Shown piece by piece: positions 2,700 to 31,185 of a stretch of DNA of 38,724 nt; the stretch's first letter is position 1; every line of letters starts with the position of its first letter. Source of the stretch: an uncultured Fibrobacterales bacterium (GTDB lineage Bacteria; Fibrobacterota; Fibrobacteria; Fibrobacterales; CAWVXU01); NCBI GenBank assembly GCA_963934255.1, contig CAWVXU010000016.1, positions 1 through 38,724 on the forward strand, read 5' to 3'. A program made the position numbers and the translations under genes. Under the pieces are notes generated by a model, which worked only from the letters and a program-made list of their open reading frames with translations, did not search any database and was not told where the DNA came from.

Positions 2700-2756
2700 A
2701 TGGCACCAAAGTTAGTATTAAATGAATTACATTTGGCATCTTGGAAGGAACTAATC

Positions 2757-3755
2757 ATGAAACCTGTTGCACTTACTGGTATTAAACCTACGGGAACTCC
2801 ACATTTGGGAAACTATCTCGGCGCGATTAAGACTGCTCTATCAAGGGTAGAGAGTAGTGAAGCGATTTATTTTATCGCTGATTACCATGCTTTGACTACT
2901 GTCCACAAAGGTGAGGAGATGCGTCACTCCATAAGAGAAGTAGCCGCAACATGGCTCGCTCTCGGGTTAGATCCTGAAAAAGCGACGATTTACAAACAAT
3001 CAGATATTCCTGAAATATTTGAACTCAACTGGGTCTTAAGTTGTTTTACACCTAAGGGTTTCATGAATAAAGCTCATGCCTATAAAGCAAAAGCTCAAGC
3101 CAATCAAGAAAAAGGTGATGAATTAGATTCTGGTGTCAATATGGGGTTGTTTGGATACCCTTGCCTGATGAACGCAGATATTTTGCTTTTTGACTCAAAT
3201 ATCGTTCCGGTTGGTAAAGATCAGAAGCAACATGTTGAGTTTGCACGTGATATTGCTGTTCGATTTAATAAAAACTATGATCAAGATTTATTTGTCGTGC
3301 CTGAGCCTCTCATTATTGGTGAAACAGAAACAATACCTGGACTTGATGGCCGTAAAATGAGCAAGTCTTACAACAACACGATTGAATTATTCTTGCCTTC
3401 CAAAAAGCTCAAAAAGAAAGTCAACAAAATTGTAACTAATTCTCAAGAGATTCATGAGGCAAAGGACCCAGAGGTTTGTCAAGTATTTGCTCTGTATAAG
3501 TATTTCTCAACCAAGATTGAACAAGAAGCTCTAGCTGCCAAATATCGTGCTGGTGGCATGGGATGGGGAGAGGCCAAAAACACATTATTTGAAGCCATAG
3601 AGTTCCATTTTGGTGATGCTCGTAAAAAATATGACGATTTGATGGGTCACCCTGATAAGATTGATGTAATACTAGCAGAGGGAGCCCAAAAAGCTCGAGT
3701 AAAAGCTCAAGCTAAAATTAAAGCGATTCGTGAAGCCGTTGGCGTCGCTTGGTAA
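2757..3755 (+). CDS. trpS: Tryptophan--tRNA ligase
   Basis: TGIKPTGTPHLGNY, VPVGKDQKQH and GRKMSKS motifs; start moved to ATG 2757 (AAGGAA RBS). Confidence 0.98.
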   Translation: MKPVALTGIKPTGTPHLGNYLGAIKTALSRVESSEAIYFIADYHALTTVHKGEEMRHSIREVAATWLALGLDPEKATIYKQSDIPEIFELNWVLSCFTPKGFMNKAHAYKAKAQANQEKGDELDSGVNMGLFGYPCLMNADILLFDSNIVPVGKDQKQHVEFARDIAVRFNKNYDQDLFVVPEPLIIGETETIPGLDGRKMSKSYNNTIELFLPSKKLKKKVNKIVTNSQEIHEAKDPEVCQVFALYKYFSTKIEQEALAAKYRAGGMGWGEAKNTLFEAIEFHFGDARKKYDDLMGHPDKIDVILAEGAQKARVKAQAKIKAIREAVGVAW

Positions 3756-3978: not shown

Positions 3979-5769
3979 TTGAATTGGACCAAATTACACG
4001 GATTTGGACTCTTTCTTTTGGTCCTTAGCTCTTGGACTTATGCTCAAGATATCGATCCAGAGGTCTACAGGCGATCAGTTGCTTATTCTGAACAATACGA
4101 AAGAATGCTTTCTAAAGCATTGTCGAACTACTATCACGATGAGAGTTATCTCATTGACGTGAGAGTGACGCTTGACCAAATGATCGTGCCGCTTGAGTAC
4201 GAGCGCCGACAAAATCAAAATATTGACCCAGCAATAGAGAAATTGCCTGGATTACCTGTGATTCCTGATGAATGGCGTAAAGCTGTGAAAGACTCACTCA
4301 ATGTGACTGAATTTCGTCGAGAATTTGGAATTAAATATGTTGATGTGACAATTCTCGTTGATACATCCTATCAGGTAGAGGATGTGGGATTTGTTATAGA
4401 ACTTGTCAAAATGAATGCCAACCTTGATGATGTTAGAGGCGACCGTGTCTCAATTAAAAAGAAAGTTTTCCCTGAATTATTTCAAAGCCACCGCAAAGTT
4501 GATACAATTCCAATGAGTGCCAACCCTCCAGTAAGTGAAGACTATGCTAATAATTCATTTGGTGAAGTACTTCAAAATGAATTACCTGTGGTCTTGCCTT
4601 TAATCCTTATATTCGTTTTTCTCGCTTTGATGATTTGGATGGTTTTACGGTATCTCAAACAGTCAGATCAAGCTGGAGAAGCAACGACTAGACACATGCA
4701 AACCCTAATGATGAAGATTGAAGAATTGAAAGATTCACAATCTAGGCCAACTGAATCTGTGGGAGAGCTTCCACCCGAAAAAACTCCGGAGTACAATGCA
4801 TTGAGAAACTATGTTCTTGATAATTTTATTGGTAGACCCCAACAATCATCAAGGCTTTTAAGTAATTGGATTCAACACCTTGGGGACCAAGGTTTAAAAG
4901 ATTCTGCTCATATCGTAGGGCTGGTTGATGAAAAGATTTTGGATATACTAGGACCACATTTAGGTGAGTCAACTTTTAATAAAATGACACTAAGATTGCA
5001 ATCAATTGAAGAACTTGATGGCGATGCCAAACTTTCACTTTTAGGCCAATTTAAAATGGATATGGAAGCTATTTTAGGGAATAGCCTCGCAAGTGATCGC
5101 GAAGGCGATATTTTTAACTTTTTAAATCAACTGAGTATTAGGCAACTCCGTCATGTGCTTAAAGGTGAGTCAACTGGAATTCAAGGTTTAGCTTTGGCAC
5201 AAATTCCATCTGAAAAAGCTGCTCAAATTTTGCAAGCAATGGATGGAGCTGAGCGCACAGGTATCTTAGTTTCAATGGGACAAATAGAGAATGTCTCTGT
5301 CCAGAGTTATAAAGATGTCGCTAAATCACTTAGTCGCAAGGCTTTAGAAGTAAGTAATATGAGATATGTGGCCGCTGATGGTATTGAAAGTATCTTGGAT
5401 GTGATCGTTGATATGCCAAGTGAATCACAGAAAAAATATTTGCAAAACATTGCCGAAATGGATTTGCCTTTGGCTGAAAAAATACGAAGATTCTACTTGC
5501 CATTTGAAGATTTAATTCAGATTCCAAAGAAGCAATTATTGGAATTAATTCAAGACCTTGATAGGGATGAAATGTCAGTCTCACTCGTGGGATCACCTGA
5601 GGAATTAAAAATACATTTCTTAGAGTCTATGCCTGAACGAATGGCTCAAGCTGTTGCTGCTGGCATTGAATCTTCGATTGACGTGGGTGGTGAAAAGGTT
5701 GAAGAAGCACGTAAGAAATTAATGCATCACTTACGAAGTGAAATTGCACTTATTGGAGGTTTAGAATGA
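3979..5769 (+). CDS. FliF(RBM3)-TM-FliF_C / FliG(N,M,C) natural fusion; rotor-like protein
   Basis: Likely start is TTG 3979 (GGAGG 8 nt upstream; the ORF track starts at 3943), giving signal peptide MNWTKLHGFGLFLLVLSSWTYA-QD. FliF RBM3-like motifs: YLIDVRVTLD, IKYVDVTILVD, LDDVRGDRVSIKKKVF. One TM helix, then FliF_C-like RPQQSSRLLSNWI. FliG-like segments: GLKDSAHIVG, FNFLNQLSIRQLRHVLKGESTGIQGLALAQIPSEKAAQIL, LAEKIRRFYLPFEDL, FLESMPERMA, VEEARKKLM. Confidence 0.85.
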   Translation: MNWTKLHGFGLFLLVLSSWTYAQDIDPEVYRRSVAYSEQYERMLSKALSNYYHDESYLIDVRVTLDQMIVPLEYERRQNQNIDPAIEKLPGLPVIPDEWRKAVKDSLNVTEFRREFGIKYVDVTILVDTSYQVEDVGFVIELVKMNANLDDVRGDRVSIKKKVFPELFQSHRKVDTIPMSANPPVSEDYANNSFGEVLQNELPVVLPLILIFVFLALMIWMVLRYLKQSDQAGEATTRHMQTLMMKIEELKDSQSRPTESVGELPPEKTPEYNALRNYVLDNFIGRPQQSSRLLSNWIQHLGDQGLKDSAHIVGLVDEKILDILGPHLGESTFNKMTLRLQSIEELDGDAKLSLLGQFKMDMEAILGNSLASDREGDIFNFLNQLSIRQLRHVLKGESTGIQGLALAQIPSEKAAQILQAMDGAERTGILVSMGQIENVSVQSYKDVAKSLSRKALEVSNMRYVAADGIESILDVIVDMPSESQKKYLQNIAEMDLPLAEKIRRFYLPFEDLIQIPKKQLLELIQDLDRDEMSVSLVGSPEELKIHFLESMPERMAQAVAAGIESSIDVGGEKVEEARKKLMHHLRSEIALIGGLE

Positions 5770-6860
5770 GAATGAGTTTAGTTACTTGGATTCTAGTTCT
5801 TGCTTTTTTCACAAGTCAAGGATGGGCTCAGCCTAAGATTGTGTTTGATAAAGCGGGCGGAGTTTGGTCTGAAGAGACTAATTCAGGTCTTCAACAAATG
5901 TACGATGTTTTAGAGCAACTCGAAGAAGCAGTTGCCGAACTTCCGCCTACAGTAGAGCGTATTGCGATTCACCAATTTAAAGTTGATTCAAAACACTTTG
6001 ATAAAGGAATGGGACGTTTCTTCAAAGCTCAGATTGAAGAAGTTTTTCGAAGAAATGGACGGCGAGATATTGTGTCGGCACCTGAACTTAAAACAACTAG
6101 AATTATAGCAACGGACACTTCATTTCAAATGTCTAATGCGATTCCAGATGCAGAGGCTTTGTGGGTCATAGGGCGTAAACTTCGTGTTGATGCTTTTGTT
6201 CAAGGTGCGATTACAAGGTCGACTGATGGTGATATGCTTTTGTCAATTAAATTAATCAAACAGGGAAGTGCTGAAATTATGTGGTCAGGTAATTTCGTTG
6301 CAGGCCCTAATAAATTAGCATCGAGAAGTCCATCATTTAAATACGCAGTCGTAGCCGCTTTTGGTTATATGCCAGTCGCCAAATATACTACTAAGGATAC
6401 CGTTATTACAAAAGGTATTGATATCTACAACTATAGTATTGACTTTACCGCATCAGAATACATTACTGATAACAAACGTCTATTATTGAATCTGACAATG
6501 GGGTTGGGGAGTTATGTACCCGTGCTTGAAAACCCTGCTGATGACGAACTATCCAATGTAGTTTTGAGGCTTCACGCAACAGGTGGTGCTGATTTTGTTC
6601 TTGTATTGTTAAAAAAACCAGCAGAAATTGAAGGCTATTATTTAGGAATGTATGGTGGAGCTAAAGCCGTTTTTCCCAACAAATTCTTATTGGTAAATGC
6701 TGGCTATATTATGCAGGCAACACCTCATTTAGGCGTGAGTGTTGGTGCTAACTATTTACCACTAAATACCAAAGTTGATGGTGGAATCCTTAGTTTAAAT
6801 GAATATGTACTTGAAATGGAGCCGCTGTCTTATGATGCTAAGATCTATTATTTCTTCTAG
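5766..6860 (+). CDS. Exported protein: FlgO/CsgG/LpoB-like alpha-beta domain plus C-terminal outer-membrane beta-barrel
   Basis: Signal peptide ending GWA-QP; RIAIHQF...IGRKLRVDAFVQGAIT...LLSIKLIKQGSAEIMWSG; C-terminal half has amphipathic beta strands ending YDAKIYYFF; overlaps the upstream stop codon. Confidence 0.6.
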   Translation: MRMSLVTWILVLAFFTSQGWAQPKIVFDKAGGVWSEETNSGLQQMYDVLEQLEEAVAELPPTVERIAIHQFKVDSKHFDKGMGRFFKAQIEEVFRRNGRRDIVSAPELKTTRIIATDTSFQMSNAIPDAEALWVIGRKLRVDAFVQGAITRSTDGDMLLSIKLIKQGSAEIMWSGNFVAGPNKLASRSPSFKYAVVAAFGYMPVAKYTTKDTVITKGIDIYNYSIDFTASEYITDNKRLLLNLTMGLGSYVPVLENPADDELSNVVLRLHATGGADFVLVLLKKPAEIEGYYLGMYGGAKAVFPNKFLLVNAGYIMQATPHLGVSVGANYLPLNTKVDGGILSLNEYVLEMEPLSYDAKIYYFF

Positions 6861-7557
6861 ACTATTTCTTCTTTGTCTATCTTCACTTGTTACGATTGCA
6901 TGCACAGGTAAAGGTGTTAAGGCTAGTAAACTTGACTCCAAAGAAAGCATTGAGGAAGAAGAGCTCGACCCTCATTCTAACAAGGAGCTCATTGTTACTT
7001 TTAAAAATGAGCGTACTCAATTATCATATAAAATCAACCCTAATGATGAAGATTTGTATATCAAGCTTTCGGGTGGAGAAGTCACAGGTATAGCGCCTGC
7101 AGCTCAACAGTTAGAGAGATCTAATTCGCAACCTATTCAAGTGACACAAACGGTTCAATCACCTCAGGCTCCTGCTCAAATCACCAAAGCTGCAGAGGTA
7201 ACTGAACCTAAAGAAGACAGTATGAGTGAAGATTTGAAACGTCAGTTGGAGCCAAATGATACTGAGTTACAAAAGGTAGGTTTGCCGCCAGAAGACGCCA
7301 CTGATCGCGTACTGAGTGATATTCGCAAGGCTCAAGAAGCTCTTTATAAAAATGATTTAGGTAATGCAGAAAAACTTGTAAGAAATTCACTTGGCATTAA
7401 AGAAACTGCAGAAGGGTTTTCTTTACTCGGCTCTATTCATTATATCAGAAAAGACAAAGCACGAGCAGTAGATTCTTGGAAGCGTTCGTTAGAGCTCGAT
7501 CCAAATAATCAGGATGTACGTGAGATGATTTTTCAAATTGATAGGTTAGAAAAATAA
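6832..7557 (+). CDS. TPR-containing lipoprotein
   Basis: Lipobox LVTIA-C; Q/P/A-rich linker; C-terminal TPR (AEGFSLLGSIHYIRKDKARAVDSWKRSLELDPNNQDV); start moved to ATG 6832 (GGAG upstream). Confidence 0.8.
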   Translation: MMLRSIISSRLFLLCLSSLVTIACTGKGVKASKLDSKESIEEEELDPHSNKELIVTFKNERTQLSYKINPNDEDLYIKLSGGEVTGIAPAAQQLERSNSQPIQVTQTVQSPQAPAQITKAAEVTEPKEDSMSEDLKRQLEPNDTELQKVGLPPEDATDRVLSDIRKAQEALYKNDLGNAEKLVRNSLGIKETAEGFSLLGSIHYIRKDKARAVDSWKRSLELDPNNQDVREMIFQIDRLEK

Positions 7558-8375
7558 TGAGAATTAGCTTAAGTACTTTAATTGGCATTGCCGGTGGTTG
7601 TGGAATAATTGGCTGGGGTGTAATGACTTCAACTAATAATTATGGCATGTTCTGGAATGCTCAAGGTTTTGCAATTGTTGTAGGTGGAACTCTCACTGCT
7701 GCTTTTGTAGGCTTTCGATGGAGATATATCCTCAAGGCGTTAATGGGCACTTTAACCATTTTCGTACGGCAAACAATTACTCCTACGACCTTAGCTGCAG
7801 AAGTTGGTCAAGTTGTTGAATGGGCTAAAACCATTCAATCTGAAGGTAAAAAGGGCGCTGAAACCATTATCGGTCAAACTGAAGATGACTTTGTAAAATA
7901 TGTATTTGGTCTTTTTAGTACAGGCTATACAACAGATGAAATCAGAGATTTTGGTGAAACATCCATTGAAGAGAACTATTTTCGTGGCTTAAGTGAAAGT
8001 ACAATCCTGCAAAACATGGCAGGGACTGCACCTGCTTTTGGTATGGTCGGTACTTTGATTGGGTTAATTGTTATGCTATCCAAAATGGATGACCCTGCAA
8101 GTATGGGGCCGGGTTTATCAGTGGCACTTATGACCACACTATATGGTGTGTTATTGGCTCGATTTATATTTCAACCCGCCTCAACTAAAGTCAAACAAAA
8201 ACTAGGAATATCCCGGTTTAGAGAATACCTCCTTTTAGAAGGGATATGTCTTATCTCTGATAAAAAGTCCTCATTTTATATTCAAGATAAGTTGAATGCT
8301 TATTTGGATCGTAAATCACAATATGCTAAGGCAACGGCTTCGGCATCCATTCAAGCTCCAAAGACTGATAAATAA
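7557..8375 (+). CDS. motA: Stator A subunit (MotA/PomA family)
   Basis: IVVGGTL; APAFGMVGTLIGLIVMLSKMDDPASMGPGLSVALMTTLYG; EYLLLEGI; four TM segments; TAATG coupling to the upstream gene. Confidence 0.93.
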   Translation: MRISLSTLIGIAGGCGIIGWGVMTSTNNYGMFWNAQGFAIVVGGTLTAAFVGFRWRYILKALMGTLTIFVRQTITPTTLAAEVGQVVEWAKTIQSEGKKGAETIIGQTEDDFVKYVFGLFSTGYTTDEIRDFGETSIEENYFRGLSESTILQNMAGTAPAFGMVGTLIGLIVMLSKMDDPASMGPGLSVALMTTLYGVLLARFIFQPASTKVKQKLGISRFREYLLLEGICLISDKKSSFYIQDKLNAYLDRKSQYAKATASASIQAPKTDK

Positions 8376-9053
8376 ATGGGCCTGTCTAGTCAAAAGAATC
8401 GGTATCGTTCATCAGAAGGTGGTGAAGAGAATATTGATGATTGGATGGCAACTTATGCCGACATGATCACACTTTTGATGTGTTTTTTCTTATTACTCAT
8501 ATCTGTATCTGAGCCAAATATGGCCATATTTGAACAAATTAAATCCGGTCTTCGGTCTGAAATCGCCGGAACTAAGATTCAAGAAACCCCACTTGCTGAA
8601 ATCAAAAAAGACCTGGATTCAGTTCTTGTCGCTGAGCGTGCAGCTGGACTTGTCATGATAGAGCTCGGCAAAAAAGGGATTCGTATGGAGTTTGCAAGTT
8701 CTGCACTTTATGGCCCAGGTGAAGCTGATATTGGTGGAAGCGCCAAAGTGATGATGAAGAAAGTCTCCGATGCCATTAATGGAATTGATTACTTTAAGTT
8801 TGATGTAGATATTGAGGGACATACCGATGATATCCCAATCAATACAGCAAGGTTCCCGTCTAATTGGGAGCTTTCCGCGGCCCGTGCCACAGGAATTGTT
8901 AAATATCTCATTTCCGAGGAAATTGAGCCTGACAGATTAAAAGCTGCAGGGTATGCTGACACCAAGCCACTTGCTCCTAATCGGGATGAGGACGGTAAAT
9001 CAATTCCAGAAAATCAGGCTAAAAATCGCAGAATCGTGATGCAAATCCGATAA
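8376..9053 (+). CDS. motB: Stator B subunit (MotB/PomB family) with OmpA-like peptidoglycan-binding domain
   Basis: WMATYADMITLLMCFF with the conserved Asp; IEGHTDD, NWELSAARA and NRRI motifs; ATG directly follows the motA stop. Confidence 0.94.
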   Translation: MGLSSQKNRYRSSEGGEENIDDWMATYADMITLLMCFFLLLISVSEPNMAIFEQIKSGLRSEIAGTKIQETPLAEIKKDLDSVLVAERAAGLVMIELGKKGIRMEFASSALYGPGEADIGGSAKVMMKKVSDAINGIDYFKFDVDIEGHTDDIPINTARFPSNWELSAARATGIVKYLISEEIEPDRLKAAGYADTKPLAPNRDEDGKSIPENQAKNRRIVMQIR

Positions 9054-9188: not shown

Positions 9189-11579
9189 ATGCTTAAAGAT
9201 GTAAAATATTTGTTCACTATAGTGGCAGTGGTAACCTCATTTATGGGTTCTGTGTTTGCTCAAGGTAGTATCACCGTGCCACCAAATTGGCCTGAACAAA
9301 AAATGATGCTTGGCCTTGCATGGGCTTCAACTGAAGATGGTAAAGCTATTCAAGATCATGGTGGCTCCTTAACCAACTACTATACTTATCGTTATATTAA
9401 TGCTTCCAATGGGAGTTCAGCTGTATCTGAGATGTCTGATGCATCGTCGGTCTATCCTGGTCTACCAAAACAGTCGGTTATTACCCAGCTCTTCATTGAT
9501 GATGAAGTCAACGTTGCTCCCGCAGGGACTCGGAAAGATTTACTCATTACAAAACTACAAACACCAACATTTGCTGCAAACTTTTTTACTCAATTGTTCC
9601 AAGCAGCTGTGCACATTAATACGGCAGGTGCCCCAATCGTCGTACTTGAGCCAGATGCACTTGGATACATACTTCAAGCTCGGTTTCATTTAGAAGAAGA
9701 GGTTGCTCCAGTAGGAATTACCTCACCAGTTTTTACAGGTGCTATTCCTGTATTCGGAGAGGATGCAAAATACAAGAATATTCTTAACTTCCCTGCGGCT
9801 GTGAAACCCTCTTCCAATGGCTTAGGTCCTGAATTTGCTTTTTTGGAAGACTACCCTAATACCATTGCTGGATTTATGCGTGCGATGGTCAGAGCCTCAA
9901 AAGTACTGATGCCGACTGCAACTGTCACTGGTCACGCTGCTGCTTGGGCTGTCTATGCAGATGGGTGTTCTGGATCAGGAAGTGCTGAAGCACTTGGACA
10001 AGAAGTTGTCAACGGGAATGTTGATGTTTTAGGTACGCAGTCTGTGGTCACATGGGACCCTGCTGATGTTGAGTTAGCTGCACTTTCAAATGTTAAATTT
10101 ATGAGAGAGCTCTATGGTTGGGATCCTGTTAATAATACCCCTGCACTTGCTGGATTGGATTGGCCTCATGCTATTGCCGTTGAAAAAGGTAATTCTTTAG
10201 CATCTAGAGATGCTGGACTTATTCAATTTGGTCCAACTCAATTTGACGGTTCAGCTCAATTATATCCAGCTGATAGACCTGCAGCAGGGACGACTGCTCT
10301 TTACTGGGATCAAGTCAAGAATGATAAATGGTTAAATTGGGCTAAGAATATCTCTCATGGAATTAAACTACCACTCATTGCTTTACGAATCCCTGTTGGC
10401 AATGGGTCCTTAGTTCAAAATACAGCTTTTCATTATCAAGATACGTTCTTGGATTGGCTGTATAGTTCAGCAAACTGGACGATCCCCATTCCGGGTACTC
10501 CTATGGCGCCTATTTGGAACCCAAACAATTTAACAAATTTCAAAAATGCTGGCTTTGTCGGATTATTTATTGGACGTGATGGTTGGCCTGCAGCCGGCAC
10601 TCATTATGGTTCTAGAATTAACACAAAAGCCACAGGATATAACGGTACTCCACCAGATTCAATTATTACCGGTGATAATGGATTTGCAATCACAACTTTT
10701 CAACAAAAAGACATGTCTTTAGCACCAGTGCCAGTTGATTTTGATGAAACAAATTTTGCGACATTCACTGGTTTTTGTGATTTAACAGAAACGACGGTAA
10801 AAGTTGCAACTCGTGGTACCGTAATTGCAACGACAAGTACTGGAACTCAAGTATTAGGAGCTGGAAATATTGCTAAGAATAACGATGATTTCCTGAGTGA
10901 AAACGAATTTCCTGAAGAATTAAAGAACAACACGATTATATTCTATAATGATGGCATGCCATTTACTCCTAACTTTAACAGATTAGAAGTAGTTGACCCC
11001 GTCACAGATTTACCTATTTCAGGTAAATTGTCGACGAGTAATGTGAACCTTACCCAACCACTTAGTGGTGAAGTAACAGCTGCTTTAGAGGGCCTTTCTG
11101 AAATGTGGATTGATATTGAAATGGAAGTTCCAGGAATGGAGTTTGCTTTAGACAACAATGTTGATCTTGGTGATCGTATCAAGAGTATTTACCCAATGTC
11201 TTATCGTTTTGATCTTTATGATCATACTGGCCAGTTTGTCGCTAGTGATTCTGGTACTATATCAGAGCAAGATTTAATCAGACTTTCATCCAATGTTGAT
11301 AACAAGATGGTGACCAACCTTAATATGAGAATTCTTCCTACCAATGAAGATGGACGTCAATTGGGCACCGGTGTCTATATATTTAGAGGGTTCATCAAAG
11401 AAGAAGCCAAGTGGATGTGTGAGCCGGGAATTGACCTGATCAGTGGCAATCCCAATTCGCTCACACTTAAACAACTAGTCAATTTTGATGATTGTTTTGC
11501 TGCAGGTGGTACCTGGCTTGTTCGGACTCGTAACGCGGTTGTGGTTAAAGATAAAATACCTTATGTTCGAATACATTGA
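9189..11579 (+). CDS. Large secreted protein: putative glycoside-hydrolase-like domain plus Fibrobacter-type/FlgD-Ig-like C-terminal domain
   Basis: Signal peptide VFA-QG; AGGAG RBS; VVLEPDALGY, PNTIAGF, SRDAG, IPVGN and HYQD motifs; C-terminal FDLYDHTGQFV...EDGRQLGTGVYIFRG. Confidence 0.55.
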   Translation: MLKDVKYLFTIVAVVTSFMGSVFAQGSITVPPNWPEQKMMLGLAWASTEDGKAIQDHGGSLTNYYTYRYINASNGSSAVSEMSDASSVYPGLPKQSVITQLFIDDEVNVAPAGTRKDLLITKLQTPTFAANFFTQLFQAAVHINTAGAPIVVLEPDALGYILQARFHLEEEVAPVGITSPVFTGAIPVFGEDAKYKNILNFPAAVKPSSNGLGPEFAFLEDYPNTIAGFMRAMVRASKVLMPTATVTGHAAAWAVYADGCSGSGSAEALGQEVVNGNVDVLGTQSVVTWDPADVELAALSNVKFMRELYGWDPVNNTPALAGLDWPHAIAVEKGNSLASRDAGLIQFGPTQFDGSAQLYPADRPAAGTTALYWDQVKNDKWLNWAKNISHGIKLPLIALRIPVGNGSLVQNTAFHYQDTFLDWLYSSANWTIPIPGTPMAPIWNPNNLTNFKNAGFVGLFIGRDGWPAAGTHYGSRINTKATGYNGTPPDSIITGDNGFAITTFQQKDMSLAPVPVDFDETNFATFTGFCDLTETTVKVATRGTVIATTSTGTQVLGAGNIAKNNDDFLSENEFPEELKNNTIIFYNDGMPFTPNFNRLEVVDPVTDLPISGKLSTSNVNLTQPLSGEVTAALEGLSEMWIDIEMEVPGMEFALDNNVDLGDRIKSIYPMSYRFDLYDHTGQFVASDSGTISEQDLIRLSSNVDNKMVTNLNMRILPTNEDGRQLGTGVYIFRGFIKEEAKWMCEPGIDLISGNPNSLTLKQLVNFDDCFAAGGTWLVRTRNAVVVKDKIPYVRIH

Positions 11580-14405: not shown

Positions 14406-15668
14406 TTAAAAACCAAGGCTTAATTCTCCTGCCCAACGTCTATTGGGTTTGTGTCCAGTGAAATAACCATCTTCATTGGCCCAGGTAGCTAGTTGGAGGT
14501 GAATATAGTGGGCTAATGAAAGTCCTGTGCCACCAGTCCAATAGCCCCCTTTAAACCCACCTGCAATCCGCGTTTCAAGTAGGTTGAGATTGAGCCAAGG
14601 AATTCCAAGCCAGGTTTGTTGGAGTTCAGCTCCCATATTCAAATGACTAAATGTTTTATAATTGCGGTCATTATTGATTGCGTCTGCAAAATCTACAGCA
14701 AAGTTTATTTTACGACCATGTAGTGTATTGCGTTGCCATTTTCTTGGAGAGAAAACCATACCTATGGTAAGATTGGGTGTAACTTTTTCTCCGTTAATGC
14801 CGTTAATAAAGATATTGGTGATTGAGCCACCTAAGCGGACTTCACGAGAATACTGGTAAAGCCCCCCTAAATCAAATCCATGATTCCATTTCTTGGGATT
14901 GATTACGTTATTTTGAGCTTCGTTAACTTGACCTTCGAGATTATTTATACTCATAACATCTTCAGGGTTTTCTAATATGATCGTTACTTCTTCTATGGAG
15001 AGTGGTACATTTTCTATTCGAGAGTTAATTAAGAGTCTATATCCAATCCCAACAGATAGTTGTGGATCGATTTCGTAGGCTGTTTGTAACTGTCCTTCAA
15101 TTGCTGCGTCTACATATTCAATTTCAGCCGCAGGTATCGCAATACCGGTGTCAAACAACATTTTCATTTCTGCTTGTGTCCAAAAAGCAGCGCCAAAATT
15201 GTGCATAGCCAAAGCCATTTCGTAACCAAGTCCGACCGGAATTGAAATACGATCTAAAAACGCCATGTCATTATAAAGATCTTCATCTGCTGCAATAGCT
15301 TCCTCTGGAGATACATCACCTGTACCGGCTAATGCATCAAAAGTTCCACTGTGTCCAGTATAAAAGTTTTTGAAGTCTGTTCCAATACCCAATATATCTG
15401 GCCCAACCCCTTGAAGACTAATTCTACCATCAAAGCTATTATTTCTATAATAACCAAGATCGGGCCGTTCTTCATACTCTCCTAATTTGTTCAAATTATT
15501 CAGTCCGGCGGGGTTATAGTAAATTGTATTGTAGTCATCTGCGACTGCTACAAAGGCGTTACCCATTGATAATGCTCTTAATGAATTATAGTTGGGTGCC
15601 GACTTTGTAAAAGCAGTGAATGGTATAGCTGTTAGGATTAGCCCGGAAATTAATATTCTGATATTCAT
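14406..15668 (-). CDS. Outer-membrane beta-barrel of the FadL/PorV/TraF-like superfamily
   Basis: RALSMGNAFVAVADDYNTIYYNPAGL N-terminal motif; ends ELSLGF; start moved to ATG 15668 (TAATG overlap with the upstream stop). Confidence 0.75.
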   Translation of the reverse strand: MNIRILISGLILTAIPFTAFTKSAPNYNSLRALSMGNAFVAVADDYNTIYYNPAGLNNLNKLGEYEERPDLGYYRNNSFDGRISLQGVGPDILGIGTDFKNFYTGHSGTFDALAGTGDVSPEEAIAADEDLYNDMAFLDRISIPVGLGYEMALAMHNFGAAFWTQAEMKMLFDTGIAIPAAEIEYVDAAIEGQLQTAYEIDPQLSVGIGYRLLINSRIENVPLSIEEVTIILENPEDVMSINNLEGQVNEAQNNVINPKKWNHGFDLGGLYQYSREVRLGGSITNIFINGINGEKVTPNLTIGMVFSPRKWQRNTLHGRKINFAVDFADAINNDRNYKTFSHLNMGAELQQTWLGIPWLNLNLLETRIAGGFKGGYWTGGTGLSLAHYIHLQLATWANEDGYFTGHKPNRRWAGELSLGF

Positions 15669-17005
15669 TACCAGCAACCTCCAATTAACGCTCTTCGTTG
15701 AGCGCGTGATATTTCGTTATTAACGTCTTCCATTATCAATGTTCTGATTGAATCAGCTGATGCTCGTCTTTGGTCTTGCTCGTCAATTGTTAATTCATCC
15801 AAAGAATCAAGATAGAGAATGTATTTTCCTGATTTGTTATACCCAAAGTTAGCAGTCAGTAATGACTCGCTGTTTAGTTCTTCGGCAGCTTCATCAGCCG
15901 TGTTATTCAAATTATTGTCGAATAAATCAGTTTCAGTAAATCTTGCATCTTCATCAATAATTCCATCGCCGTCATTATCAATTCTATCACGAATTTCTTC
16001 GTCAACACATCCATCGCCGTCATTATCTTCTTTGTCTGCGATTTTGTAGAAAGTTGCGATCGCTTGAGCCCGTTCTAATTCTTTTTGAAATTCAGGGGTT
16101 TCTGTATCAACTTGTTCACCATCTTCGGTCTGCAATAGGTCAGCTGGTATGTCAATAATATCTAGGTTTTCACCTAAAGTCTCAAGACTTCCATTGAAAT
16201 CATCAATATCTTCTTCTGCAATTGTCGTCAAGTCAAGATCACCTTTTGCTAGATTATCAAAAAACGCTGTATCATTAGTTATTTGACTTAGATTGCTAGC
16301 GATACTTGCAGTTTCAATCAGACTGAGTAGCATATATTCTGGATTGACCCTTACTGCTGTGACCTTTCCATCCATGATGGGAAATTCATTCGGCTTGTAA
16401 ATTGGGGCATCATGAGTGTGGTATTGATAATAGTAGAGTCGATAGTCTGCTAAAATAACTGAATCCTTTGCGCTTGCCATGACAATTGTTAATTCAACTG
16501 AGTCACCTGCAGCGAGGCTCACTGGGTCTTCGCTTGATTGATACTTATTAAATGTGACCCAAAGATCATTAATAGAATCTCTTCGAATAAGTTCAGTAAG
16601 TACAGCGGTGGTTGATTTAATCGCTGGAATATTACTAGCTAGGTCGCCTTGAACAAGATCAGTGATGGCGGTTAATGCGTCACCACTTTCGCTATTCATA
16701 GTGATCATTGCTTCAGATACAGTAACGGGATTAAAATTATCTGTTCTTAGTATTGCCTTTGATAAGCCATAATATGCCAGGGACTTACTTGAGTCTTTTT
16801 TGAGTGCATTTTCAAAAACTATGATAGCATCTTTGTTATCGCCTTGCTGCAGAAGGCTTTGACCATAAACAATTAATCCATCGGCATCGAGATCTACATT
16901 ATCTGCAGCACCTGATGGATTAAAAAGGTTTTGACACCCCATGATTACCAAACCTAAAGTGAACACTAGGGCTAATTGGGCTTTTATTCGAGGCATTTGC
17001 AACAT
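15668..17005 (-). CDS. Lipoprotein with N-terminal TPR and acidic DxDGDG (Ca-binding-like) repeats
   Basis: Lipobox VIMG-C; TPR (AIIVFENALKKDSSKSLAYYGLSKA); DNDGDGCVDEE and DNDGDGIIDED. Confidence 0.75.
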   Translation of the reverse strand: MLQMPRIKAQLALVFTLGLVIMGCQNLFNPSGAADNVDLDADGLIVYGQSLLQQGDNKDAIIVFENALKKDSSKSLAYYGLSKAILRTDNFNPVTVSEAMITMNSESGDALTAITDLVQGDLASNIPAIKSTTAVLTELIRRDSINDLWVTFNKYQSSEDPVSLAAGDSVELTIVMASAKDSVILADYRLYYYQYHTHDAPIYKPNEFPIMDGKVTAVRVNPEYMLLSLIETASIASNLSQITNDTAFFDNLAKGDLDLTTIAEEDIDDFNGSLETLGENLDIIDIPADLLQTEDGEQVDTETPEFQKELERAQAIATFYKIADKEDNDGDGCVDEEIRDRIDNDGDGIIDEDARFTETDLFDNNLNNTADEAAEELNSESLLTANFGYNKSGKYILYLDSLDELTIDEQDQRRASADSIRTLIMEDVNNEISRAQRRALIGGCW

Positions 17006-26050: not shown

Positions 26051-27535
26051 GTGGTTCAATTTTTCAATCTCTTTGTTTTAGATATTTTCATGGTGCTCTA
26101 TACGATGTGTGCTATGCTGCTTTTTATCTATGGAATCAATTCTTATCATTCAATCTATTTGTTTTTAAAGCATCGTAAAAAGACTGTGACTCGGGATCGA
26201 GAGTTTCTTGCTACGCACCAACTAAAAGATTGGCCTTTAGTTACAACACAGCTGCCTCTTTATAATGAATCAGCTGTGGTCGAGCGTCTCATCAAGGCCA
26301 TTTGTGCGATTGAATACCCACATGGATTACATGAAATTCAAGTACTAGATGACTCAACTGATGGTTCGGAGTTGATATCCAAGGGCATTGTTGATGAAAT
26401 GAGAGCTTTGGGTCATCAAATTAATTGGATTTATAGAAGTGATCGGTCTGAATACAAAGCAGGTGCTTTGAAGGCTGGAATGAATCTAACAGAAGGCGAG
26501 TTTATTGCAATTTTTGATGCTGATTTCATGCCTGAAGCTGATTTTTTGATTAAAACTATCCCGTTTTTAATGGAGAATTCGACATTAGCCTTAGTACAAG
26601 GTCGTTGGGGGCATGTCAATCGTGGCGATAGTTTATTGACATTAGCTCAATCTATTGGGATTGACGGGCACTTTGTGATTGAACAATCTGCTAGGTCTTG
26701 GGGTGATTTGTTTATGAACTTTAACGGTACGGCTGGAATTTGGCGTAAAAGTGCGATTGAAGATGCAGGCAATTGGCAAGGTGATACGCTGACTGAAGAC
26801 ATGGATCTAAGTTATCGAGCTCAGTTGAGAGGTTGGAAAATGAAGTTTCTTTATGACATTATTGTACCAGCTGAATTGCCAGATGATATTAATGCTTTTA
26901 AAAGTCAACAATACCGCTGGGCCAAGGGGTCTATACAGACAGCCAAGAAGGTTCTTCCACAAGTGTTTAGAGGTGACTTTAGCCTTCGAGTTAAATGGCA
27001 GGCTCTCATGCATACCACGCACTATATGATTCATCCTTTGATGCTGAGTACGGCTATTTTATCTTTACCCTTATTGACGTGGTATCGTTATAGTTTACCT
27101 AGCTTCATGATTTGGTTTATTGTAGTGACTATTTTTATTGCTTCAGTGGCTCCTTCTGTACTTTATTTTGTTGCCCAACGCTTTTCTCAGTCGGAAGGGT
27201 GGAAAAAAAGAGTCCTTGTTTTTCCTATTTTAATGAGTTTAGGTACGGGAATTGCCATAAATAATTCAAAAGCAGTGTTTTCTGCTCTTTTGGGGCGGAA
27301 ATCAAGCTTTGTACGAACACCAAAAAAAGGTGATCAGAAGTTTGTCAAGACCTCTATTAATTTCCCATTAATTGCCATTATTGAGTTAACTCTAGGAGTC
27401 TACTGTGCCATATCTTCTCAGATTTATTTCACAAGTGATAAATATCTCGTGGGTCCTTTTTTAATCCTCTATGCAATTGGGTTTTTATGGGTAGGAACAC
27501 TCTCTATTCTCCATTTTAGTCGCCAAAAAGCCTAG
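26051..27535 (+). CDS. Membrane GT2 glycosyltransferase (cellulose-synthase-like family)
   Basis: QLPLYNE, VLDDS, YKAGAL, IFDADF, FNGTAG, TEDMDL and QQYRW (D,D,D,QxxRW); N- and C-terminal TMs. Confidence 0.92.
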   Translation: MVQFFNLFVLDIFMVLYTMCAMLLFIYGINSYHSIYLFLKHRKKTVTRDREFLATHQLKDWPLVTTQLPLYNESAVVERLIKAICAIEYPHGLHEIQVLDDSTDGSELISKGIVDEMRALGHQINWIYRSDRSEYKAGALKAGMNLTEGEFIAIFDADFMPEADFLIKTIPFLMENSTLALVQGRWGHVNRGDSLLTLAQSIGIDGHFVIEQSARSWGDLFMNFNGTAGIWRKSAIEDAGNWQGDTLTEDMDLSYRAQLRGWKMKFLYDIIVPAELPDDINAFKSQQYRWAKGSIQTAKKVLPQVFRGDFSLRVKWQALMHTTHYMIHPLMLSTAILSLPLLTWYRYSLPSFMIWFIVVTIFIASVAPSVLYFVAQRFSQSEGWKKRVLVFPILMSLGTGIAINNSKAVFSALLGRKSSFVRTPKKGDQKFVKTSINFPLIAIIELTLGVYCAISSQIYFTSDKYLVGPFLILYAIGFLWVGTLSILHFSRQKA

Positions 27536-27585
27536 TGTATTTATTATATTTGGAAATGAAAAGAATAAATTTATGGGAACATAAA

Positions 27586-28521
27586 ATGAAAAAAAAATTT
27601 GCTTTAATCTTGACTCTTGTAGGCTTCTCTTTATTGGCTTCAGCCTGTGGCTCTTCTGATATTGATTTGGATAATATTCCAAATAAGCTTGATGAATGTC
27701 CTCAAGAAGCTGAAGACTATGATGGTTACAAAGATAACGATGGTTGTCCTGACCTAGATAATGATTCCGATGGTGTTCCTGATACTCAAGACCAATGTAT
27801 CTTTGATCCAGAAGACCGTGATGGCTTTAACGACCAAGATGGTTGTCCTGATAATGATAATGATGGCGACAAAATGCCTGACAACAAAGATAAATGTCCA
27901 AATGAACCAGAAGACCGTGATGGCTTCAAAGATGCTGATGGTTGTCCTGACCCTGATAATGATGGTGATGGTGTTCTAGATGTCAATGATAAGTGTCCAA
28001 TTGACAAAGAAGATATGGATAATTTTGAAGATACTGATGGTTGTCCTGAATTTGATAATGACGGCGATGGTATCAAAGACAAATTCGATATATGTCCGCT
28101 ACAACCTGAAAATGTGAATGGCAAAGAAGATGATGATGGCTGTCCTGATAGAGCTCGTGCTCCGTTACCAGAACAATTTGAGTTGGTGATATTGTTTAAT
28201 TCTGGGACTGATGAACTGACTTATAACTCAAAGGTTAAATTAGAAGAGGATATCGTAAAGACTCTCTCTATTTACCCTGAACACCAGTTACTAGTCTACC
28301 TCTACATGCCTCGTATTGAATTAGACTTACCAGAATACTTACTGTTAATTAACAATCGTTCATCAGCTCTAGCAAATTACCTTTATTCTAAAGGAATTAG
28401 AGAGAATCAACTTCGGATTCGTACAATTACAGAAGAGCTTTACTTGAAATTTGAAAATAAATCTGAGGATTTCAATCAAAACAAAAAAGTGAAATTTGTT
28501 CGTAAGACGATTAAAAAATAA
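27586..28521 (+). CDS. Lipoprotein with thrombospondin type 3-like repeats and a degenerate OmpA-like C-terminus
   Basis: MKKKFALILTLVGFSLLASA-C lipobox; five 33-aa repeats; ILFNSGTDEL...YLYSKGIRENQL...NKKVKF. Confidence 0.82.
   Translation: MKKKFALILTLVGFSLLASACGSSDIDLDNIPNKLDECPQEAEDYDGYKDNDGCPDLDNDSDGVPDTQDQCIFDPEDRDGFNDQDGCPDNDNDGDKMPDNKDKCPNEPEDRDGFKDADGCPDPDNDGDGVLDVNDKCPIDKEDMDNFEDTDGCPEFDNDGDGIKDKFDICPLQPENVNGKEDDDGCPDRARAPLPEQFELVILFNSGTDELTYNSKVKLEEDIVKTLSIYPEHQLLVYLYMPRIELDLPEYLLLINNRSSALANYLYSKGIRENQLRIRTITEELYLKFENKSEDFNQNKKVKFVRKTIKK
27658..28152 (+). repeat. Five tandem 99-bp (33-aa) coding repeats
   Basis: Consensus DNDGDGxPDxxDxCPxxxEDxDGFxDxDGCPD; GATGGTTGTCCTGA-like motif recurs every 99 bp. 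Confidence 0.92.
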
Positions 28522-28609: not shown

Positions 28610-29590
28610 TTAATAAGGAATATGAACAAGTGTTTTGTTTGCCTTACCTTGTATCTCTCGAACTACTTTAGGGCAAAGATATCCAGGCAGCTTACTCTGA
28701 ATCTCTTTATAAATCGCCAATGCCTTAGAGTCTGAAATTTCAAAGTGTTGGACTCCTTCAACTCGATCTAATAAATTCAAATAATAGGGTAATACACCTT
28801 GATCAAATAGCTTATGTGAAAGGTTAATTAGAGTAGTTGCCTTATCATTCACATCTTTTAAGAATACAGTTTGATTGAGTAATGTCCACGAATTTACTTT
28901 CCACAAAGCCAACGCATTTTTTGTTTGTTCATCAAGTTCATTGGCATGATTAACGTGTGCTACAATAACTTTATTGCCCTTGAATTTATTGAAAATATTT
29001 AAAAGTTCCTTGGTGGAAATTGATGGACTGGTAGTGAGGCTTCTCGAGTGAATTCTTAGTGTTTTAATATGCTCAATTTTAATTATTTCATCAACAAGCT
29101 GCTCCAATCGTGCTTGGCTCAAACTCAGGGGGTCACCACCTGATAAAATGAGTTCAGATATACTCGTGTCGGCTTTCACCAATTCAAGGCTTTGCACAAG
29201 TTGTTGGTGTGTCTTAGGAGAATCATTGTAAGGGAAGTGTTTACGAAAACAATACCTGCAATGAAGTGCGCAGCTACCGGTTGTTATTAATAAAGCTCGG
29301 CCACTGTACTTGTGGATAAGCCCCGGTGCAATAGTGGCGGCTAGATCACCTACAGCGTCTTTACTCCAATTTAATTCCGGAGCGTTCAACTCTTCTTTGC
29401 GGGGCAATACTTGAAGAAGAAGTGGGTCTTTGGGGTTTCCTTTTTCAATTTTATCTAACCAGTGGCGGGGTATTAATAAAGGGAAATTTGGAGTCAAGGG
29501 GATGGCATTGGCGTCAAGACCAAGTTTTTGAGCAATGTCAATGACTCTATGAACCGATGTTGACTGACTTTTTGCTACATTTTCTGTCAT
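28610..29590 (-). CDS. epmB: EF-P beta-lysylation lysine 2,3-aminomutase (radical SAM)
   Basis: DPLLLQVLP, GLIHKYSGR, CALHCRYCFRKHFPY, ILSGGDPL, LRIHSR; divergent from efp; start ATG 29590. Confidence 0.93.
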   Translation of the reverse strand: MTENVAKSQSTSVHRVIDIAQKLGLDANAIPLTPNFPLLIPRHWLDKIEKGNPKDPLLLQVLPRKEELNAPELNWSKDAVGDLAATIAPGLIHKYSGRALLITTGSCALHCRYCFRKHFPYNDSPKTHQQLVQSLELVKADTSISELILSGGDPLSLSQARLEQLVDEIIKIEHIKTLRIHSRSLTTSPSISTKELLNIFNKFKGNKVIVAHVNHANELDEQTKNALALWKVNSWTLLNQTVFLKDVNDKATTLINLSHKLFDQGVLPYYLNLLDRVEGVQHFEISDSKALAIYKEIQSKLPGYLCPKVVREIQGKANKTLVHIPY

Positions 29591-29618
29591 TGAAAAACCT
29601 CTAAAATGGATGTGATAT

Positions 29619-30191
29619 ATGGCTCTAGGACATACAGACCTACGCAAAAGAACAAAAATCTTAATTGATGGTCAACCTCATATTATTCAAGATGCTGATT
29701 TTGTTAAGCCTGGCAAAGGCCAAGCCTTCACTCGCGTAAAGATTAAAAACTTAATAACAGGTAAAATATTCGATAGAACCTATAAGTCAAATGAATCTGC
29801 TATTGAATGTGATGTCACTCAATCTGCAATGCAGTATCTTTATAATGACTCTTCTGTATGGACCTTCATGGATATGGAGTCTTTCGAGCAAGTTGAAGTT
29901 GAAAAGGTTGCAATGGGTGGTGCTGAGAATTTCCTTCTTGATAGCATGATGTGTAATGTGATGATGTGGGAAGGCCGTGTACTAGAGATAGAACCGCCTA
30001 ACTTTGTAGATCTCCTCATTACAGACGCTCCTCCGGGAGTAAAAGGCGATACAGCTACAAATGTTCTTCGCCCTGCAATTTTAGAGACTGGCTTTGAAAT
30101 CGGTATCCCACTATTTATTGATCAAGGTACTCGTATCAAAGTGGATACAAGAACTGGTGAGTATGTTGAACGCTCAAAGATTGAAAAGTAA
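29619..30191 (+). CDS. efp: Elongation factor P
   Basis: FVKPGKGQAF loop, PGVKGDT, KVDTRTGEYVER. Confidence 0.98.
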   Translation: MALGHTDLRKRTKILIDGQPHIIQDADFVKPGKGQAFTRVKIKNLITGKIFDRTYKSNESAIECDVTQSAMQYLYNDSSVWTFMDMESFEQVEVEKVAMGGAENFLLDSMMCNVMMWEGRVLEIEPPNFVDLLITDAPPGVKGDTATNVLRPAILETGFEIGIPLFIDQGTRIKVDTRTGEYVERSKIEK

Positions 30192-30198
30192 ACTTTTC

Positions 30199-31185
30199 AT
30201 GAACAGCAAGCTTCAAGCTGCAATTAAACGCGCGGACCTTATGTCAATCATAAGGTCCTTTTTTACAGAGAAGGGAGTCCTAGAAGTAGAGACTCCTTTG
30301 TTGTCAAGAGCCTCAGGTATGGACCCTTGGATAGATGTTTTTGAAACTCAAAATTTCGTTGATGGCGTTGAAGCAAGCCAAATTAAAAAACAATCACTTT
30401 ATCTAAATACGAGTCCTGAATTTCACATGAAGAGGTTATTGTGTGAGGGATTCCCTGATTGCTTTCAGATTTCAAAAGCGTTTAGGTGCGGTGAAACGGG
30501 CCCACGACATCAGTGGGAATTCACAATTTTAGAGTGGTATCGACTTGGTTATGATTCAATTAGTCTTCAAGCTGAAGTCGAGCAACTTTTGGTGCTCGTT
30601 GGATTTAGTTTACCGGCTCTAAAGATCACTTGGCGTGAGTTATATCAGAATAATTGTCATTTCGATCCAATTCATGTGTCAATTGAGGATTTAGAAAAGT
30701 TTATTGAGGCGCAAAATTTAGCACCCCTCAATCGCTCTCAATCTGAGAACTCCTTTGAATTTAAAGAATCACTTTTAGACTATATATTGGTTTCTATCAT
30801 TGAACCCAAGCTAGGATTTGAGGGACCTTTGTGGGTGGAGAAATATCCTGCTCACCAAGCCGCACTTGCTAAGACTTGGATAGATGATGAAGGTTTGGCT
30901 TGGGCTCATAGGTTTGAACTCTATATTGAGGGCGTGGAGCTTGCTAATGGCTATTGGGAGTTGACTGACGTTCACGATCAACGGTCTCGTTTTAAAGCCG
31001 ATCAAACCAAAAGGCTTGAGCTTGCAAAACGGCCTTTAAAAATTGATGAAGAATTTTTATCAGCCTTAGATGAAGGCCTGCCCGATTGCAGTGGTATTGC
31101 AATAGGTTTGGATCGACTTTTAATGTTGAAGACCCAATCTTCAGTAATCCAGGATGTTTTATTGTTTCACAATGACAACTGTTAG
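30199..31185 (+). CDS. epmA: EF-P lysine aminoacylase (GenX/PoxA)
   Basis: LEVETP, LNTSPEFHMKRLL, EFTILEWY, ELANGY, CSGIAIGLDRL; no anticodon-binding domain; start ATG 30199. Confidence 0.94.
   Translation: MNSKLQAAIKRADLMSIIRSFFTEKGVLEVETPLLSRASGMDPWIDVFETQNFVDGVEASQIKKQSLYLNTSPEFHMKRLLCEGFPDCFQISKAFRCGETGPRHQWEFTILEWYRLGYDSISLQAEVEQLLVLVGFSLPALKITWRELYQNNCHFDPIHVSIEDLEKFIEAQNLAPLNRSQSENSFEFKESLLDYILVSIIEPKLGFEGPLWVEKYPAHQAALAKTWIDDEGLAWAHRFELYIEGVELANGYWELTDVHDQRSRFKADQTKRLELAKRPLKIDEEFLSALDEGLPDCSGIAIGLDRLLMLKTQSSVIQDVLLFHNDNC

Follow-up and report, generated by a model that had tools for sequence, protein, structure and literature searches.

A five-gene operon at positions 3979–9053 of contig CAWVXU010000016.1 from an uncultured Fibrobacterales bacterium encodes a natural FliF-FliG fusion, a predicted outer-membrane barrel protein, a predicted tetratricopeptide repeat (TPR) lipoprotein, MotA and MotB. 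The stretch analysed, hereafter the window, is this whole contig of 38,724 nucleotides (C16 in our numbering) in the 2.67-Mb, 92% complete assembly GCA_963934255.1. The five-gene set is real and conserved, and we regard it as a previously undescribed type of machine, assembled from familiar components and with an output that is presumed. Judging from sequences and structural models, we consider it probable (roughly 0.6) that the set acts as a flagellum-independent, unswitched, ion-driven rotary motor applying torque to an outer-membrane partner. A preliminary description, made from the window alone, had proposed a minimal ion-driven rotor-stator, repurposed from the flagellum and spanning the envelope through two partners of its own; the domain and structural evidence given below supports this proposal. 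Its report of five co-oriented genes with overlapping or abutting ends after trpS was confirmed by the open reading frames (ORFs), their junctions and Pfam analysis. The genes are as follows.

3979–5769, + strand: gene 1, rotor, FliF-FliG fusion of 596 aa from the TTG at 3979 (Pfam, Foldseek)
5766–6860, + strand: gene 2, putative outer-membrane barrel protein (AlphaFold2 model, structure matches)
6799–7557, likely start 6832 or 6835, + strand: gene 3, predicted TPR lipoprotein (TPR_2, lipobox-like Cys)
7557–8375, + strand: gene 4, MotA/PomA-type stator subunit (NCBIfam PomA and MotP, Pfam MotA_ExbB)
8376–9053, + strand: gene 5, MotB carrying a plug and a peptidoglycan-binding domain of OmpA type (Pfam MotB_plug and OmpA)

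The operon is flanked by trpS (2700–3755) and an unrelated 796-aa ORF (9189–11579). Genes 1 and 2 overlap in an ATGA at 5766–5769, gene 3 starts inside gene 2, genes 3 and 4 overlap in a TAATG at 7557, and the stop codon of gene 4 abuts the start codon of gene 5 (8375/8376). The TTG start of gene 1 follows a GGAGG located 7 bases upstream, in a frame that is open from 3943. Pfam families detected in the cluster were FliG_M/FliG_C, TPR, MotA_ExbB and MotB_plug with OmpA, with none in gene 2. Beyond the cluster, no further flagellar or chemotaxis Pfam family was found among the 35 scanned window ORFs (of 47 of at least 80 aa; the 12 omitted are short and mostly overlap larger ORFs).

Gene 1 is a natural fusion, predicted to run from a signal peptide through the RBM3/beta-collar of FliF, one membrane helix and a linker into a complete FliG. 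Its parts are located as follows.

4051–4473, + strand: FliF RBM3/collar-like periplasmic ring domain (VIA-align, hhalign)
4243–4257, + strand: LPGLP motif at the predicted collar tip, aligned to FliF GVPGA by the family profile
4588–4644, + strand: single predicted transmembrane helix, equivalent to FliF TM2, the sole hydrophobic segment over threshold (mean hydropathy 3.05)
5140–5739, + strand: FliG middle and C-terminal (torque) domains (Pfam, alignment, structure)

The signal-peptide-like start was read from the sequence, and Pfam identified FliG_M (E value, 1.7e-10) and FliG_C (E value, 6.3e-18). The FliF part went undetected by Pfam, without a match to YscJ_FliF, a family that the true FliF of the host matches at 2e-59. 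A Foldseek search with the AlphaFold2 model (predicted local distance difference test score, pLDDT, 72) returned both FliG (E value, 3.6e-10) and the FliF S-ring (E value, 1.2e-4). Residues 25–165 of the model aligned with Vibrio FliF 8z5v in VIA-align (Z 14.4; root-mean-square deviation, rmsd, 2.0 Å over 98 residues), and the family profile aligned with residues 235–431 of E. coli FliF in hhalign (probability 93%; E value, 2.8e-7). From residue ~300 onward, the model aligned with whole FliG chains, over FliG residues 3–327, and its C-domain superposed on FliG-C of the stator-bound structure 8ucs_H (Z 13.5; rmsd 1.6 Å over 88 residues). The fusion announced in the preliminary description is therefore correct for a whole FliG, and its FliF part has to be narrowed to RBM3/collar and one helix, as seen by profile and structure; RBM1, RBM2 and TM1 are missing. 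A flagellar FliF holds RBM1, RBM2 and RBM3 between two membrane helices, an architecture that gene 1 does not have, and because RBM1 and RBM2 are absent, the protein would offer no seat for the export gate.

Gene 1 has the N, M and C domains of FliG and the torque-helix Arg281. The equivalent of this arginine (5638–5640) was found in 56/56 sequences and is R or K in 142/146 wider family members. Within the collar motif, the P and G are conserved in 172 and 171 of 178 family sequences, respectively. The collar-tip loop of FliF (305–354) has been assigned to rod binding and torque transmission in flagella (PMC11739650; bioRxiv 10.64898/2025.12.04.692373), and RBM3 alone forms the S-ring (PMC11739650). 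The EHPQR motif of FliG is the site that binds the FliM/FliN switch (PMC7505661). Its EHPQ part reads ESTG in gene 1; among 55 type-1 proteins, the E is kept in all 55 and the H, P and Q in none. Engineered FliF-FliG fusions from Salmonella and Vibrio make rings (PMC11481574; PMC6079021). Like gene 1, for which a ring is predicted, they are single ring-capable chains, but as far as those papers describe them they are full-length mutants or constructs inside a flagellum, whereas gene 1 represents a natural, truncated and conserved family with its own stator. In a tree of small sample, the FliG parts of 30 fusions formed one clade (ultrafast bootstrap, UFBoot, 100) apart from six flagellar FliGs. 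A natural FliF-FliG fusion reportedly exists in Chlorobium, on which a literature search found nothing.

Genes 4 and 5 have the features of a flagellar-type stator. In NCBIfam, gene 4 matched PomA (7e-41), MotP (5e-37) and ExbB (2e-3), all below the curated cut-offs, and TolQ scored far lower too; it groups with MotA/PomA rather than ExbB/TolQ, as an A subunit of the flagellar ion transporter (FIT) class does. FIT stators have, in a structure, a square-fold transmembrane domain and a four-helix torque interface (PMC12505986). A small tree separated gene 4 from four ExbB-like proteins of the host (UFBoot 100), and since the insertion of E. coli is missing from its alignment, gene 4 is TGI4-like. 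Equivalents of MotA Pro173, Thr209 and Pro222 were each present in 53/53 sequences. The threonine pattern, which bears on the coupling ion, is one that we take to be PomA-like. Gene 5 matched MotB_plug (3e-16) and OmpA (8e-14) and has the plug and the OmpA-like wall-binding domain of a FIT-class B subunit; its channel Asp29 (8460–8462) is equivalent to MotB Asp32, found in 53/53. At the rotor-stator interface of the window, the Glu98–Arg281 pair is present and the Arg90–Asp288/289 pair is lost on both sides, which suggests that the two surfaces are matched but diverged. In a MotA tree with only two flagellar MotAs, the flagellar MotA of the host grouped with the MotAs of three cassettes (L126, L127 and L129), in which the gene order is rearranged to barrel, TPR, MotA, MotB and fusion.

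The two remaining genes are predicted to face the outer membrane. The AlphaFold2 model of gene 2 (pLDDT 80) divides into two domains, both assigned from the model and its structure matches.

About 5892–6314, + strand: predicted periplasmic domain, LpoB/TolB-N/PelC/FlgT-like
About 6333–6857, + strand: predicted 8-stranded beta-barrel

The periplasmic domain was closest to LpoB (4q6l; Z 12.0), followed at middling scores by PelC (Z 8.0) and a chain of the Vibrio LPHT ring (~Z 8), and the barrel resembled those of OprF, NspA and OmpA (Z about 14). The C-terminal residue of gene 2 is aromatic in 55/55 homologs. By sequence, gene 2 matched nothing in Pfam, NCBIfam or the PDB, and the clusters of its look-alikes carried the labels Balneolota, Myxococcota and Bdellovibrionota. 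Gene 3 has a lipobox-like Cys at 6901–6903, and 38/54 homologs have a lipobox-like motif. Its conserved C-terminal TPR module (about 7408–7509; TPR_2, 2.6e-5, below the Pfam cut-off) matched the C-terminus of the usher-like proteins of a sister form described below (E value, 3e-13).

A scan of species genomes yielded 56 loci, in Fibrobacterota and in Balneolaceae and their kin. The five-gene order is complete in 52 of them and the other four stop at contig ends, while only trpS recurs among the flanking genes, in three loci. Two rows were dropped: L110, a fusion-like ORF with a run of N that is probably ordinary fliF-fliG, and L130, in which fliF and fliG are of the ordinary kind. When 1.84 billion representatives were searched with a profile, most (>100) of the best 150 matches listed were full-length fusions; a few matches are labelled Elusimicrobiota, Gammaproteobacteria or Bacteroidales, by protein labels alone, the gene order having been seen in two phyla. 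Within Fibrobacterota, 31 of 296 genomes carry a full or near-full fusion and four a fragment, and two large genera carry none (0/101 and 0/19); one unpublished genome (G303) adds to the denominator only. In a sample of 301 genomes from the phylum of Gracilimonas tropica, 40 matched the fusion, one of which proved to be ordinary fliF-fliG.

The host of the window is itself flagellated, with FlhA, FliF, seven flagellin-N matches and five rod/hook matches, and contigs C90 and C3 hold fliF, G, H, I, J, flhF, A, B, fliR, P, O, N/Y, M, L, motB, motA, flgE and flgD. The earlier statement that flagellum genes are absent accordingly holds for the window and fails for the genome. The genome-wide search which the preliminary description had called for nevertheless did not yield the counter-evidence that it had named, a complete flagellar set depending on these genes: the flagellar set of the host includes a separate FliF, FliG and MotAB, and the operon is therefore a second rotor-stator set rather than a missing flagellar core.

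Flagellum-free carriers were sought among 50 of the 56 carrier genomes by three family searches, for FlhA, for flagellin-N and for ordinary FliG. The first matched in 28 genomes and the second in 31, and 19, counted without completeness figures, had neither of these nor an ordinary FliG. Single-chromosome records account for seven of the 19, and the names of two, Gracilimonas tropica DSM 19535 and Balneola sp. EhC07, lack the prefix of a metagenome-assembled genome. Flg_bb_rod (rod/hook) had no match in all five genomes tested, namely four of the 19 and a Fibrobacteria genome (G291; 1.6 Mb, one contig, 98% complete). In the latter, the five genes stand in order, and profile searches found no FlhA, rod/hook, FliP or ordinary FliG. 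An ExbB/TolQ-like gene cluster lies ~5 kb from its operon on the opposite strand (L103; G291:C1:928000-947999). In the flagellar-marker-free genomes, the median ratios of nonsynonymous to synonymous substitution rates (dN/dS) of genes 1 to 5 were 0.057, 0.049, 0.115, 0.037 and 0.032, from seven usable pairs among the 19 (six for motB) that are kin and so not independent; flagellated carriers gave medians of 0.05 to 0.29. A flagellar motor always comes with a type III export gate, rod, hook and filament; the five-gene set occurs in these 19 genomes without FlhA or flagellin. By these sequence comparisons, the five-gene set is flagellum-independent and under strong purifying selection, and decay is excluded. 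The preliminary description had named such conserved synteny in aflagellate genomes as support, and neither the lost synteny nor the relaxed selection that it named as counter-evidence was seen, with the order kept in 52/56 loci and low dN/dS.

A second form of the fusion is present in many Balneolaceae, and G. tropica DSM 19535 has both forms and none of the three flagellar markers. In this sister form, which lies outside the window, an usher-like gene replaces gene 2 directly upstream of the fusion (12/12 fetched loci and 15/20 further loci). The sister operon (loci L088–L099, L113–L125 and L131–L132 of Balneolaceae and kin, with the upstream chaperone and pilin genes where the contig allows) comprises four DUF4402 pilin-like genes, a chaperone, a 1000-aa usher-like gene with C-terminal TPR, the fusion, a TPR lipoprotein, MotA, and a MotB that in most cases has a SPOR tail. 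The chaperone is named PapD/fimbrial chaperone by JGI, NCBI and UniRef, and PapD_N was matched below the cut-off in two members (E values, 6.7e-4 and 7.5e-3); a comparison with E. coli EcpB gave no match. For the usher-like protein, Usher PF00577 was found in one member (E value, 0.01) and TcfC weakly in two, with no match among PDB sequences or to E. coli EcpC, so that its label is a putative one derived from position, size and these weak matches; an usher proper is a 24-strand barrel with a plug. A PDB sequence search did not confirm the identity of the pilin-like proteins.

A C-terminal TPR like that of gene 3 occurs in 27/27 motor-linked usher-like proteins and 0/20 motor-less ones, the latter from 20 loci (L133–L152) taken from chaperone matches without a fusion match. 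SPOR domains show a different arrangement. They scored above the Pfam cut-off in 10 of 13 motor-less usher-like proteins scanned, and 16 of the 20 motor-less ushers matched the profile of the SPOR tail of the sister-form MotB; among motor-linked loci, MotB bears the tail in 24, and in two it is short and has no SPOR. In the tree of usher cores, motor-linked and motor-less proteins interleave, a pattern for which repeated loss and allele exchange are both candidate causes. The SPOR tails are only 19–42% alike even between close usher cores, and the SPOR-tail tree is weak. Several motor-less pilus loci have the same downstream genes as motor-linked ones.

These data can be assembled into a working model. 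Gene 1 would self-assemble into an inner-membrane ring with the FliG gear beneath it, and the operon's own MotA5B2 units, anchored to the wall, would turn this gear. Because the FliM-binding motif is gone, rotation would be one-way and without chemotactic switching. The partner gripped by the collar loop may be the TPR lipoprotein, the gene 2 periplasmic domain or both, and torque would thereby reach the outer membrane. The outer-membrane end might be a swappable load, namely the small barrel here and a chaperone-usher-like pilus platform with the same TPR module in the sister form. The barrel form most likely works mechanically on the outer membrane or its surface layer, for instance by moving or tensioning surface material, rather than serving swimming or transport through the barrel. 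A bolder and rather doubtful extension is that the cassette is a plug-in engine spinning outer-membrane structures: a ring of small barrels here, and in Balneolaceae the usher with its growing pilus, which would amount to a rotating filament without type III export. The placement of the wall-binding SPOR tail fits this extension: in motor-less loci it is mostly on the usher itself, and in motor-linked loci on the stator MotB, an arrangement in which the usher would be free to turn.

Several observations weigh against a rotary motor. For the five-gene set, rotation, the ring, the contacts and the output phenotype are things we infer, and the operon has no axial shaft protein. The flagellar rotor-stator charge set (FliG K264, D288, D289 and R297; MotA R90 and E98) is kept only in part. 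Across 56 FliG sequences there is no conservation of Lys264 or Arg297, Ser mostly takes the place of Asp288, and the Asp289 position has Glu in 41 sequences, with Gly in the window protein. On the MotA side, K or R stands at Arg90 in 43/53, with Gln in the window protein, and the Glu98 position has Glu in only 6/53 as well as in the window protein. For G. tropica, a carrier in culture, the published motility entry is "None" (PMC5167729). The split of 27 versus 20 usher-like proteins covers related genomes and may reflect few events, and one motor-less usher (L144) has TPRs of an unrelated kind. Pilus genes of the sister kind were not found in the window's genome by profile search, and the pilus evidence therefore bears on the window by homology alone. 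The outputs suggested earlier fared less well than the machine itself: no gliding is reported for Balneolaeota in the same source (PMC5167729), which leaves gliding unsupported, and protein or polysaccharide translocation finds no support in a gene 2 whose model is a narrow 8-stranded barrel, probably an OmpA-type anchor rather than a conduit.

An alternative that we regard as unlikely but worth keeping is a Tol-like force transducer, in which the ring does not spin freely, the stators push, and the outer-membrane anchor is pulled or tensioned for envelope upkeep or division. The TolB-N/LpoB fold of the gene 2 periplasmic domain fits this, as that fold adjoins the TolA-binding region in TolB and Tol systems are accompanied by TPR lipoproteins such as CpoB (PMC12204202); the partial loss of torque residues and the retention of the five genes in a 1.6-Mb genome would fit too. 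However, Tol and Ton systems use a TolA/TonB arm with ExbB/TolQ-type motors, whereas the stator here is flagellar-type, and they need no FliG gear, which is present in full. Pfam and NCBIfam detected none of the Tol-Pal/Ton families (TolA/TonB transducer, TolB propeller, Pal, ExbB/TolQ-type motor) in the operon, and although gene 2 and TolB share the TolB-N fold, in gene 2 it is followed by a barrel instead of a propeller. Less probable again is an energised conduit or assembly platform, with the RBM3 ring as a periplasmic channel, as in SpoIIIAG, and the motor driving export or assembly of a polymer or fibre. RBM3-like rings do occur in SpoIIIAG (PMC11481574), the exopolysaccharide export ring PelC has the gene 2 fold, and the sister form stands directly behind a chaperone and usher-like gene; but a polymer would not fit through a barrel of eight strands, the loci have no conserved neighbour encoding a substrate, synthase or export gate, and the 20 pilus loci without a motor imply that fibre assembly does not need one.

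The remaining explanations return the cassette to the flagellum. An accessory or alternative rotor-stator for an ordinary flagellum would suit the host and most Fibrobacterota carriers, which are flagellated; it seems very improbable given that purifying selection persists in genomes without flagellar markers, that the fusion has neither RBM1/RBM2 for the export gate nor the FliM site, and that most flagellated genomes in the host-phylum sample lack the fusion. We attach hardly any weight to the idea that the set is decaying and was left over from a flagellar cluster after loss or duplication. The parts do derive from the flagellum and several canonical residues are lost, yet the frames are open, the order is fixed in two phyla, dN/dS is far below 1 and the two non-flagellar partner genes are always present.

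Compared with known systems, the rotary motor proposed here is closest to the core of the flagellar motor (FliF MS-ring, FliG and MotA5B2/PomA5B2), with which it shares the RBM3/collar fold, the FliG N/M/C folds, a stator with plug and OmpA domain, the channel Asp and FliG Arg281. It differs in having FliF and FliG in one chain without RBM1, RBM2, TM1 or the FliM site, in an operon that lacks export apparatus, rod, hook and filament and adds two non-flagellar partners. TolQRA-TolB-Pal, ExbBD-TonB, AglRQS, ZorAB and SiiAB likewise couple an inner-membrane ion motor to outer-membrane work, which is presumed here, but in the available parts of PMC12204202 and PMC12505986 none of these non-flagellar 5:2 motors is said to drive a FliG ring. 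In the published classification, a plug and a wall-binding domain mark a stator as flagellar, and non-flagellar motors form the GIT class without plug and OmpA domain (PMC12505986); the cassette stator has flagellar (FIT) features yet occurs outside the flagellum. The sister form alone resembles chaperone-usher pili, in its DUF4402 pilin-like genes, PapD-named chaperone and usher-like gene. Chaperone-usher pili are not known to need an energy source. Unlike theirs, the usher-like protein of the sister form ends in TPR, and its gene runs straight into the rotor and stator genes.

To our knowledge, no FliG gear turned by a MotAB stator has been described outside the flagellum. The preliminary description had not recognised a described system, and we likewise found no description in the literature, supplements and most subscription journals being outside the coverage; the five-gene operon is not mentioned in the portions available of PMC12505986, PMC12204202, PMC13277936, PMC11481574, PMC6079021, PMC11739650, PMC5167729, PMC7505661 and the Vibrio preprint. 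If the rotary reading is true, a three-protein rotor-stator maintained by selection in cells without flagella would represent a minimal motor of natural origin that lacks both switch and export apparatus. It would offer a simple system for the study of torque generation, and what a motor is good for without a filament would become testable, with G. tropica DSM 19535 as a cultured carrier. It would also bear on how the flagellum arose or was re-used, the direction of descent not being settled by the present data.

Other features of the window were recorded. Promoter and terminator scans found 18 elements versus 15.4 expected, which is chance level. In one marine metatranscriptome, 0.16 of the words were present and three contigs matched segments of genes 1 and 2 with full identity; because DNA carry-over is possible, these matches were not counted as evidence of expression. 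The 796-aa ORF downstream of the operon is secreted-looking and has no Pfam or NCBIfam match, and a region near its C-terminus weakly resembles one other protein encoded in the host genome; it was rejected as part of the system since it is not conserved beside the operon in related loci. At 14406–17005 on the minus strand, a gene for a weakly FadL/TodX-like outer-membrane protein adjoins one for a TPR protein, and at 26051–28521 a GT2 glycosyltransferase gene overlaps a gene with thrombospondin type 3 repeats. Elongation factor P (EF-P), a gene with an EpmA-like class II synthetase domain and a divergent radical SAM gene lie at 29619–31185 and 28610–29647, in what is presumably the arrangement of EF-P modification clusters.

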